Source: Clostridia bacterium (GTDB lineage: Bacteria; Bacillota; Clostridia; Oscillospirales; CAG-272). Taken from it: a stretch of DNA of 64,000 nucleotides. Shown in pieces: positions 13,732-31,167 of the stretch (its first letter is position 1; the number at the start of each line of letters is the position of its first letter). The notes under the pieces are model-generated. The model had not been told where the DNA came from and did no database searches. It saw nothing but the letters and a program-made list of their open reading frames with translations. The DNA is taken from contig JAFVSI010000009.1 in the NCBI GenBank assembly GCA_017503865.1, positions 8,171-72,170 on the forward strand, in the 5' to 3' direction. A program made the position numbers and the translations under genes.

Positions 13732-14334
13732 TCAAAGTTTAATTTTAATTTCGGTAGCAATGCCGAGAATTCTTGCGTCTCCCGATTCGAAATCCTCGGG
13801 GGCGAGGAGAATGGGGGAATAGTCCTCGTTTTCGGGGATAAGCCTGACTCCCTTTTTATCCTTTGAAAAGCGTTTTACCGTTGCACTGTCGCCACCGACA
13901 AGGCAGGCGACTATGTCTCCGTTTTCGGCATACTGCTGTTTCTTGAAAAGCACAAGAGAGCCGTCTATCATACCGATGTTTTTCATACTGTCTCCCCTTA
14001 TCGTGAGGAAAAAGAAGTCGTTAGAATCGTCAACGTCAGCTATCTCGTAGCCAAGCAAGGTCTCTTCGGTGATTATCGGACTTCCCGCACGAATTTCTCC
14101 TATTATAGGTATCTGTGTGCCTCTCTTGGCGGTAATGGGACTACCTGAGTCGAAGAAATAATTTATGCCTACGTCAAAATATTCGGCAATTTTTTGGAGC
14201 TTGTCTGCCTTCGGCACAGTGCGACCGTACTTCCAGTCGGCAAGAGTAGAGGGAGATATTCCCGTATCCTTCGACACGCGGTATGCGGTAATTTTGTGCA
14301 TTTTGAGCAAATTTTCAAAGCATTGGTAGTTCAT
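13732..14334 (-). CDS. CI/LexA-like repressor: XRE-family HTH fused to an S24 self-cleaving peptidase domain
   Basis: The N-terminus ITAYRVSKDTGISPSTLADWKYGRTVP is an XRE HTH. The C-terminus GDSMKN...GDIVAC...ATVKRF is an S24 Ser/Lys dyad context. ATG 14334 sits behind AGAGGTG; the longer ORF-track start lacks an RBS. Confidence 0.8.
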   Translation of the reverse strand: MNYQCFENLLKMHKITAYRVSKDTGISPSTLADWKYGRTVPKADKLQKIAEYFDVGINYFFDSGSPITAKRGTQIPIIGEIRAGSPIITEETLLGYEIADVDDSNDFFFLTIRGDSMKNIGMIDGSLVLFKKQQYAENGDIVACLVGGDSATVKRFSKDKKGVRLIPENEDYSPILLAPEDFESGDARILGIATEIKIKL

Positions 14335-14387
14335 TCGGACACCTCTTTGATATATTTCACAATATTTCGGAAATCCGTAATAAACTA

Positions 14388-14416
14388 TTGACATTATTTC
14401 GGTTTTCCGATATAAT
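14388..14416 (+). promoter_or_regulatory. Perfect consensus sigma-A promoter reading rightward toward the Zn-ribbon gene
   Basis: TTGACA (14388-14393), 17 nt, TATAAT (14411-14416). Confidence 0.6.
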
Positions 14417-14429
14417 CTTGTCAAGATAT

Positions 14430-14458
14430 ATTATACAACATATGTCGAAAAATGTCAA
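14430..14458 (-). promoter_or_regulatory. Perfect consensus sigma-A promoter reading leftward toward the S24 repressor gene
   Basis: On the minus strand: TTGACA (14458-14453), 17 nt, TATAAT (14435-14430). The spacer contains TGTCGAA (14443-14449). Confidence 0.6.
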
Positions 14459-14497
14459 TAAATAATCGAAAATTTAGAAATGAGGTGATTAAAGAAA

Positions 14498-14701
14498 ATG
14501 TGTGAAATTTGCGGAGGGTATTTCTGCTATCCGTCGTGCCCGTCTTATGATGGAGATAGTGCTGAGCTTGGAAGAAGACTGTTTTGGTGTTCTTCTTGCG
14601 GCTGTTCAATACACGAAGCTGACGGATATAGTGTTGACGGTGAATTCGTATATTGTGAAGATTGCGTACAAAAGCGAGATGATGCAGATGAAGGAAATTG
14701 A
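14498..14701 (+). CDS. Small Cys-rich (zinc-ribbon-like) hypothetical protein
   Basis: This 67-aa protein carries CEIC...C...C, CSSCGC and CEDC pairs. The RBS GAGGTGA lies upstream. Confidence 0.5.
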   Translation: MCEICGGYFCYPSCPSYDGDSAELGRRLFWCSSCGCSIHEADGYSVDGEFVYCEDCVQKRDDADEGN

Positions 14702-15053
14702 TAAGAACGACATCAAGAGGGCGGAAGATTATTTAAAGGGGTACTGTATAAACGGAAAGCTTCTGCGTCTTGAAAGATATGAAAGGGAATATTTTGGTGA
14801 TAAAGGAGCTTGCGATTTTGAGGGAATTGGTGAAGTACCTCTTGCGAGGGCAAGAATGTATGAGGTGAGACACTTTATAAATTCGCTCCCTAACAGCGAC
14901 GAAAAGCTTTTTCTTTATTACCGTTACATAAAGGGGGAAACGGTAGAGCGGTGCGGGGAGCTGCTCGGGCTTTCAAGAAGCTCTGCCTTCAGGCTAAAAA
15001 TCAGAGCTGTCAAAATAGCTGCAGAGGAGTTGGCGAAAACAGATGTGCAGTGA
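14679..15053 (+). CDS. Sigma-70 region-4-like HTH protein (resembles phage late-gene activators of the ArpU/DUF1492 type)
   Basis: The C-terminus DEKLFLYYRYIKGETVERCGELLGLSRSSAFRLKIRAVKIAAEEL is a region-4-type HTH. The start is ambiguous (ATG 14679, 14682 or 14688). The gene overlaps the upstream gene's 3' end. Confidence 0.5.
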   Translation: MMQMKEIDKNDIKRAEDYLKGYCINGKLLRLERYEREYFGDKGACDFEGIGEVPLARARMYEVRHFINSLPNSDEKLFLYYRYIKGETVERCGELLGLSRSSAFRLKIRAVKIAAEELAKTDVQ

Positions 15054-30569: not shown

Positions 30570-30855
30570 CTTGATATGCGATGAAGCGAGAGGTTGCTGC
30601 TTAGGCAGGTAATTTTCGTGGAGTATGTCCGTTTTGATCGGGCGACAGCAATCCTTACACGGCTTTTGCAGTGTTTTTGCGAACGTTATCCGAAATGTCA
30701 AATATGGTACTGATGTTTGGCGGTTTCGGTTTTTAAACGGAGAGCGAAGATACGCACGGCACAGTGTCAAGGGAGCGTCCCTGCAAGAAAACGCGATGTC
30801 CGCGAGTTATCCACGAACACGCGGCAAGCGAAATAATTACAAGGAGGCAAACAAA
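30570..30855 (+). promoter_or_regulatory. Long (~285 nt) untranslated leader of the S10 operon, possible r-protein autoregulatory leader
   Basis: This is the distance from the consensus promoter to the rpsJ ATG (30856). Several local hairpins are present, e.g. CTGC-TTAG-GCAG and CGCG...CGCG. The ORF-track extension 30625-30855 has no RBS. Confidence 0.3.
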
Positions 30856-31167
30856 ATGGCAGTTAAGGAAAAGATCAGAGTAAGACTCAAGAGCTACGAC
30901 CACACAATCATCGATGCAGCAGCAGAGAAGATCGTTGAGGTTGCTAAGAGAAACGGCGCAGAAGTTTCTGGTCCTATACCGCTTCCCACAGAGAAGGAGA
31001 TAGTTACCATTCTCCGTGCGGTTCACAAGTATAAGGACAGCCGTGAGCAGTTTGAGATGCGTACTCACAAGAGACTCATTGACATATTGAAGCCTACACA
31101 GAAGGTTGTAGACGCACTTATGAGCATTGAGCTTCCCGCAGGCGTTGAGATCGAGGTAAAAATCTAA
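30856..31167 (+). CDS. rpsJ: 30S ribosomal protein S10
   Basis: [16 protein letters not shown]... with AAGGAGG upstream. Confidence 0.95.

Follow-up and report, generated by a model that had tools for sequence, protein, structure and literature searches.

The intergenic region between a gene for an autocleaving S24 repressor and a divergent operon of two small genes, in the window that we analysed (the whole stretch of 64,000 nucleotides), is probably a repressor-gated pair of competing promoters, as judged from its sequence and from that of its relatives. The region is 163 bp long with a G+C content of 27%. It holds two promoters of the form TTGACA-17-TATAAT, P(right) on the + strand (14388–14416) and P(left) on the − strand (14458–14430), each of which matched the consensus at 12 of 12 positions in a promoter scan of the window. 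The two point at each other across the 13 bp that separate their −10 boxes (14417–14429, sequence cttgtcaagatat), and the claim of an earlier, sequence-only reading that two perfect sigma-A-type promoters stand face-to-face here was borne out with all its coordinates. On the + strand, the elements follow in the order O1, TTGACA, a spacer with O2, TATAAT, the 13-bp gap, ATTATA, a 17-nt spacer and TGTCAA, where O1 and O2 denote two predicted repressor operators (Table 1).

Table 1. Features of the cassette, in window coordinates
Feature	Position	Strand	Basis or remark
Repressor gene, 200 aa, XRE-type HTH and C-terminal S24 autopeptidase domain	13732..14334	−	Pfam, homologues
Repressor RBS, GAGGTG	14340..14345	−	'cctc' kept beside the start codon in related loci
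O1 (predicted operator), TTCGGAAATCCGTA	14366..14379	both	1 mismatch to TTCGGNNNNCCGAA; position kept in 54 distinct sequences
P(right) −35 box, TTGACA	14388..14393	+	Promoter scan; invariant column block across species
O2 (predicted operator), TTCGGTTTTCCGAT	14398..14411	both	Near-maximal information content across species
P(right) −10 box, TATAAT	14411..14416	+	Promoter scan; column information across species
Predicted start of P(right)	A14423	+	7–8 nt from each −10 box
Predicted start of P(left)	G opposite C14422	−	7–8 nt from each −10 box
P(left) −10 box, TATAAT (ATTATA on + strand)	14430..14435	−	Promoter scan; column information
P(left) spacer, 17 nt, holds TGTCGAA	14436..14452	−	Not conserved
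P(left) −35 box, TTGACA (TGTCAA on + strand)	14453..14458	−	Promoter scan; column information
RBS of first rightward gene, GAGGTG	14482..14487	+	Read from sequence
First rightward gene, 67-aa Cys-rich protein	14498..14701	+	Conserved ORF
Second rightward gene, 123 aa, sigma-region-4-like C-terminal domain	14682..15053	+	PHROG, model

Perfect 12-of-12 promoters number six in the 64-kb window, against 0.04 expected (iid); all have 17-nt spacers, and two of the six are the pair that face each other within 71 bp. Given this excess, perfect consensus appears to be the form in which the host organism writes its strong promoters. There are four further TTGACA-17-TATAAT promoters, at 1437(+), 9753(−), 16361(−) and 30534(+); of these, one precedes abrB (16254–16009), one the ORF 1511–2740 and one the ORF 30625–31167, and one falls in the region upstream of an acyl-carrier-protein gene. 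An extra TTGACA on the − strand (14419–14424) sits right at the predicted starts, as part of the palindrome cttgtcaag; no −10 box goes with it, and other species do not conserve it.

A scan of one genome per species returned 217 relatives of the repressor, and the best 80 of these 217 (60–72% identity) were retrieved with their flanks. These 80 all come from uncultured Clostridia, Oscillospiraceae or Eubacteriales from guts, and with the window they form a comparison set of 81 loci from species-level genomes. The gene for the sigma-region-4-like protein lies divergent from the repressor gene in 69 of the 81 loci (68 plus the window). Both face-to-face promoters are present in all 69, with 10–12 of 12 matches, and every locus except L082 has at least 11 matches on both sides. 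A tight layout, with −10 boxes 13–16 bp apart, is found in 55 of the 69 (16 bp, n = 35; 15 bp, n = 14; 14 bp, n = 5; 13 bp, the window itself), and 51 of the 54 distinct tight-layout sequences score 12 of 12 on both promoters. The remaining 14 loci have a wide layout, in which the gap is 29–82 bp, the promoters still face each other and the operator is a variant one. The layout is kept in about 70 uncultured gut and rumen Clostridia species.

Across the 54 distinct sequences, column information is maximal at the four hexamers and O2, moderate at O1 and about zero in the P(left) spacer. Conservation in the gap between the two −10 boxes is confined to C-A (positions 6–7) and A-C-A (positions 9–11); the 34 loci whose gap is 16 bp have C at position 6 in 24 cases and at position 10 in 31, and A at position 7 in 26 and at position 11 in 31. 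These short motifs put a purine 7 nt from each −10 box, in agreement with the earlier placement of both starts near 14423, for which our prediction is 14422/14423. Such a pyrimidine–purine step 7 nt from each −10 box is what would be expected if both promoters fire. The predicted transcripts abut at 14422/14423 in the window and overlap by 4 nt in the 16-bp class, and each promoter does lie, as had been proposed, within the 5′ UTR of the opposing transcript. A Spo0A-box-like TGTCGAA that had been singled out is present at 14443–14449, but the P(left) spacer around it carries about zero information across the 54 sequences, which speaks against a conserved element. The same heptamer occurs 11 times in the related intergenic regions versus 2.8 ± 1.6 in shuffles, a mild enrichment with no fixed position (besides the window, in L085, L016, L071, L076 and L006), and a lineage-specific Spo0A input may exist in these spore formers.

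Two direct repeats, TATTTCGGAAATCCG (14363–14377) and TATTTCGGTTTTCCG (14395–14409), had been put forward as candidate operators. Both are present at these positions and are better read as 14-bp palindromes of the form TTCGG-N4-CCGAA at 14366–14379 and 14398–14411; so refined, they stand as candidate operators, with O2 almost invariant across species. The P(right) −35 box is immediately preceded by O1, which corresponds to about +44..+57 of the P(left) transcript. O2 takes up the spacer of P(right) and shares one base, the first, with the −10 box of that promoter; relative to the P(left) transcript, it lies at about +12..+25 in the window and at +16..+29 in the 16-bp-gap class. In all 54 distinct tight-layout sequences, O2 begins 4 nt past the −35 box (10 nt from the −35 start), and the start-to-start distance from O1 to O2 is 31–33 bp, about three helical turns. 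By sequence comparison, these predicted operators are conserved around P(right) only, and P(left) has no conserved operator. Elsewhere in the 64-kb window there is no TTCGG-N4-CCGAA site beyond O1 and O2. A wider regulon was rejected, as the window holds two sites only and matches in the related loci lie nearly all just upstream of the repressor gene; none was found near cinA in L088.

In 14 of the 54 tight-layout loci, versus 1.9 expected, the 5′ UTR of the rightward operon holds a third operator-like site, past the P(left) −35 box (L008, L010, L025, L021, L054, L056, L072 and L081 are among these loci), and the wide-gap loci L063, L071, L074 and L076 have one as well. It was not found in the window, where the best match (14464–14477) reaches 8 of 14. 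This site may have a looping or roadblock role.

The left gene, which the sequence-only reading took to be an S24 repressor, was confirmed as such by its HTH_3 and Peptidase_S24 domains, its Ala-Gly site and an invariant Ser/Lys dyad. Pfam reports Peptidase_S24 (PF00717) at 8e-25, with 87 bits against a cutoff of 23.3, and HTH_3 at 1e-9. The Ala83-Gly84 cleavage site and the Ser116 and Lys154 dyad are invariant in 30 repressor homologues, and the C-terminal domain aligns with solved structures of LexA (3e-16), UmuD and CI. Its start at 14334 was taken from the homologue alignment, not from a longer TTG ORF. The canonical LexA model TIGR00498 gives 96.4 bits against a cutoff of 110.95, with residues 72–193 alone aligning, and the winged-helix N-terminal domain of LexA is absent, its place being taken by an XRE-type HTH_3. 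On the strength of these domain comparisons, we therefore group the repressor with chromosomal S24 regulators of phage-like type, among them HdiR and the non-canonical LexA of Bacteroidetes. An Ala-Gly scissile bond and a Ser-Lys dyad are the criteria for S24 autocleaving repressors given in PMC8565304. In L087 (8619–10532) and L088 (8615–10561), an ABC-F ATPase gene begins 12–16 bp after the repressor stop on the same strand, and P(left) may drive both genes.

The first rightward protein combines an N-terminal CxxCx4Cx3CP cluster with a C-terminal zinc-ribbon-like CxxC...CxxC. Its eight cysteines are invariant in 22 species, an ORF with an MCxxC start occupies the same position in at least 49 related loci, and the 67-aa ORF is real. 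Its structure model, of low confidence (pLDDT 67), shows similarity to the zinc-binding domain of ClpX and to LIM domains, and profile searches and the alignment revealed no HTH or other DNA-binding domain. The public gene calls extend the downstream gene to 168 aa (P0121, 14547–15053), so that it runs through the 67-aa ORF in a different reading frame; known homologues of the sigma-like protein measure 117–141 aa. The Cys-rich family is largely unannotated, with 11 database entries.

The second rightward protein matches phrog_36 (6e-12) and phrog_248 (5e-6), of the transcription-regulator category, and falls below the Pfam thresholds of DUF1492 (18.6 versus 21.5) and Sigma70_r4 (17.4 versus 24.1). 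In its AlphaFold model (pLDDT 79), about 60 C-terminal residues superpose on region 4 of SigD, SigE and SigR with an rmsd of 1.9–3.4 Å, at weak Foldseek E values of 0.07–0.4; a sequence search against solved structures gave no meaningful match. The genes downstream differ between species and are often convergent (in the window, the next is a HAD hydrolase gene), so that the rightward operon appears to consist of the two small genes alone. No conserved target gene adjoins the sigma-like gene across the related loci, and the Cys-rich and sigma-region-4-like operon is the only detectable target of the repressor by sequence search.

The 12 loci without the sigma-like gene all keep a strong P(left). 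Seven of them show no promoter in the divergent direction, in four a separate promoter stands far upstream in back-to-back orientation, and L040 has a weak face-to-face match of 10 of 12. In 10 of these 12 loci, an operator-like site begins 11–14 nt below the P(left) −10 box, which suggests autoregulation, with the repressor bound downstream of the start of its own transcript. Within the cassette, this autoregulatory operator would also serve as the spacer of the opposing promoter. Loci that have P(left) and an operator and lack the operon also indicate that operator sharing and autoregulation could explain part of the layout without a toggle.

An open complex of RNA polymerase covers roughly −55 to +20, and each −10 box of the cassette occupies +8..+13 of the opposing promoter. 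With coincident starts and a footprint of this size, two polymerases could not hold the region together, and the mutually exclusive occupancy proposed earlier would follow. While repressor is present, a pair of HTH-S24 dimers on O1 and O2 would keep polymerase off P(right), and P(left) would have the DNA to itself and make repressor mRNA. The P(left) polymerase would have to escape and transcribe through bound operators that span about +12..+57, which would result in negative autoregulation. Loss of the repressor, most likely by RecA-stimulated self-cleavage at Ala83-Gly84 (RecA dependence is assumed), would unmask P(right) and leave two equal promoters to compete, one polymerase at a time. 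Operon expression would then rise at the direct expense of repressor synthesis, so that induction would be both sharpened and prolonged. As the starts coincide, there would be no room for collisions between elongating polymerases, and interference would take the form of competition and occlusion, unlike in phage 186; an overlap of just 0–4 nt excludes antisense pairing in the tight class. Given equal core promoters and no second operator set, a sharpened, self-resetting SOS-like switch explains the cassette more economically than a toggle with two heritable states. The third operator-like site of the 14 tight-layout loci counts against this competing-promoter model, which leaves it unused.

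A serious rival, if a rather unlikely one, is that a single operator pair represses both transcription units, that both rise on induction and that promoter competition is a side effect. The gene lexA itself rises in the SOS response. The position of O2 falls within or beside the polymerase footprint; because O2 overlaps the downstream edge of a P(left)-bound polymerase, the repressor may repress both promoters together, by analogy with BirA at the bio operon, and both transcripts would then rise. The loci without the operon place their operator-like site from about +5..+8 of P(left), as in classic autorepression, and the bio operon has an operator between face-to-face promoters (PMC5640590). 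However, the operator of the cassette lies further downstream of the P(left) start than in those single-promoter loci, which would weaken direct occlusion, and P(left) must be active when repressed for the repressor to be made at all. Furthermore, steric exclusion between two polymerases would remain under joint repression as well.

We consider it unlikely that the cassette is a true bistable toggle, in which the repressor shuts P(right), the firing of P(right) or its product shuts P(left), and two states are heritable; in one variant, the P(right) product is an anti-repressor or a Cro analogue. A double-negative loop does exist in principle, from the repressor to P(right) and from the P(right) polymerase to P(left), and a cooperative O1–O2 spacing would provide non-linearity. 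The face-to-face layout is found in every locus with the operon, and the lysis–lysogeny switch of phage 186 has face-to-face promoters, as it is cited in PMC2760811. On the other hand, identical core promoters imply symmetric competition, in which P(left) should fire once repressor is gone and reset the system. The hallmarks of a two-repressor switch are likewise missing: neither the P(left) spacer nor its flanks hold a conserved operator for a second regulator, the first opposing gene encodes no HTH or other DNA-binding domain and is not a Cro, and there is no prophage context. On this evidence the layout does not establish the bistable switch that had been claimed for it; bistability is plausible and unproven.

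It is distinctly doubtful, though conceivable, that RNA polymerase itself serves as the second repressor of a one-protein toggle, making the cassette, with its two equal consensus promoters and coincident starts, a conserved chromosomal memory device that commits gut Clostridia to a novel protein pair. Repressor cleavage would in that case commit cells to a ferredoxin-like CxxCx4Cx3CP/zinc-ribbon protein and a sigma-region-4-like protein. WhiB-type Fe-S proteins bind sigma region 4, and in loose analogy the two proteins could re-target or modulate RNA polymerase. Finally, it is very improbable that only one promoter functions and that the other match arose through AT-richness or because TATAAT is nearly symmetric. 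DNA as AT-rich as this region often yields promoter-like matches (23 in the promoter scan versus 15 expected), but 12-of-12 matches are expected only 0.04 times per window, and each gene needs a promoter and has only this candidate. Conservation itself contradicts the idea of a single promoter: both hexamer pairs are invariant across species while the P(left) 17-nt spacer drifts freely.

The cassette is chromosomal and not phage-borne. Its neighbours in the window are the housekeeping genes ComEC, DpaA/B, HAD hydrolase, AbrB and RNase J, and in other species they include ABC-F, PNP and CinA. ComEC adjoins the repressor gene only in the window's own species and the position of the cassette is not syntenic, so that it sits in variable chromosomal contexts. 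The promoter–operator pattern has no match in viral contigs and no phage record encodes the sigma-like protein; together with the housekeeping neighbours, these results led us to reject a prophage switch. An RNA element was also rejected (Rfam returned nothing near threshold, and neither 5′ UTR fold significantly outdid its shuffles, with z scores of −0.26 and −1.78), as was an origin by large inverted duplication, since the two spacers show no relationship and the local inverted repeats are centred on different points.

Like the face-to-face switches of the phage 186, P2 and Ecl18kI type, the cassette has opposing promoters (69 of 69 operon loci, with predicted starts) and predicted operators at one of them, O1 and O2 around P(right). 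The pR/pL pair of phage 186 and the Pe/Pc pair of P2 likewise stand between a repressor gene and an opposing operon, with repressor operators at the opposing promoter. Their starts are separated by about 62 bp in 186 and about 35 bp in P2, interference comes mainly from elongating polymerases that traverse the weaker promoter, a second regulator (Apl or Cox) completes the loop, and both switches belong to prophages. In contrast, no elongation-type interference, second regulator or prophage context was seen in the cassette. The face-to-face switch of phage 186 is covered by PMC3675496 and by Dodd 1990 and Callen 2004 as cited in PMC2760811.

The Pm/Pr promoters of Ecl18kI/SsoII are similar in that they face each other between divergent genes and that polymerase at one hinders the other. 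Ecl18kI is the precedent for polymerase exclusion at facing promoters, and interference occurs there although 50 bp separate the starts; by blocking one promoter, the regulator indirectly turns on the other, whose polymerase then transcribes past the regulator on the DNA (PMC2760811). The two promoters of that system are unequal, one of them is non-canonical and the regulator is a methyltransferase, whereas in the cassette the starts are 0–4 nt apart in most species, both promoters are of consensus type and the regulator is an autocleaving S24 repressor. The E. coli bioA/bioBFCD region offers a chromosomal case of divergent, facing promoters, with a palindromic operator among the −35 and −10 elements (PMC5640590). 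There, one operator co-represses both promoters, whereas in the cassette only one promoter has embedded operators, and the repressor gene itself is driven by the other.

With regard to the regulator, HdiR of Lactococcus and Streptococcus, the non-canonical LexA of Bacteroidetes and IrvR of S. mutans share with our repressor a CI-type HTH joined to an S24 domain, an Ala-Gly site and the Ser/Lys pair. They are chromosomal and autoregulated and have a small local target set (PMC8565304, PMC7101444). Their targets as given there are umuC cassettes, SOS genes or irvA, in contrast to the Cys-rich and sigma-region-4-like operon of the cassette, and the accessible literature on HdiR, the Bacteroidetes LexA and IrvR describes no face-to-face twin-promoter layout. 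The sigma-like protein resembles, by its PHROG matches and a putative sigma-region-4-like fold, the Ltr late activators of Gram-positive phages (RinA, ArpU, LtrA/Sigma70_r4 and LtrB/DUF1492), small proteins whose DNA-binding domain is sigma-region-4-like and that are made only after loss of a CI-type repressor (PMC3753634). It differs from them in scoring below the Pfam thresholds, in having no terS or late operon downstream and in lacking a homologue in phage records.

The face-to-face switches described so far belong to a few phages, one restriction-modification system and the bio operon. With starts 0–4 nt apart and both promoters of perfect consensus, the cassette takes this design to an extreme geometry, and we regard it as a new and extreme variant, well replicated in evolution, of a regulatory principle that is already known. 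The related loci also provide a natural variant series, with −10 gaps of 13–16 bp in most, of 29–82 bp in others and a single promoter in some, which may be used to probe the interplay of promoter competition, roadblocking and repressor cleavage. Furthermore, the comparison flags a previously unannotated Cys-rich protein and its sigma-region-4-like partner as the apparent sole output of an SOS-like regulator in these organisms.

Among the wide-gap loci, a sub-family (L059, L063, L066, L071, L074, L076 and L078) carries the operator TTACG-N4/5-TGTGA or GCGTAA. It keeps the order O1, −35, O2, −10 with a −10 gap of 40–72 bp, and the overlap between its two transcripts would reach tens of nucleotides. 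The MAG RGIG9137 carries the whole cassette twice, as the differing copies L047 and L052, and twin promoters are present in both.
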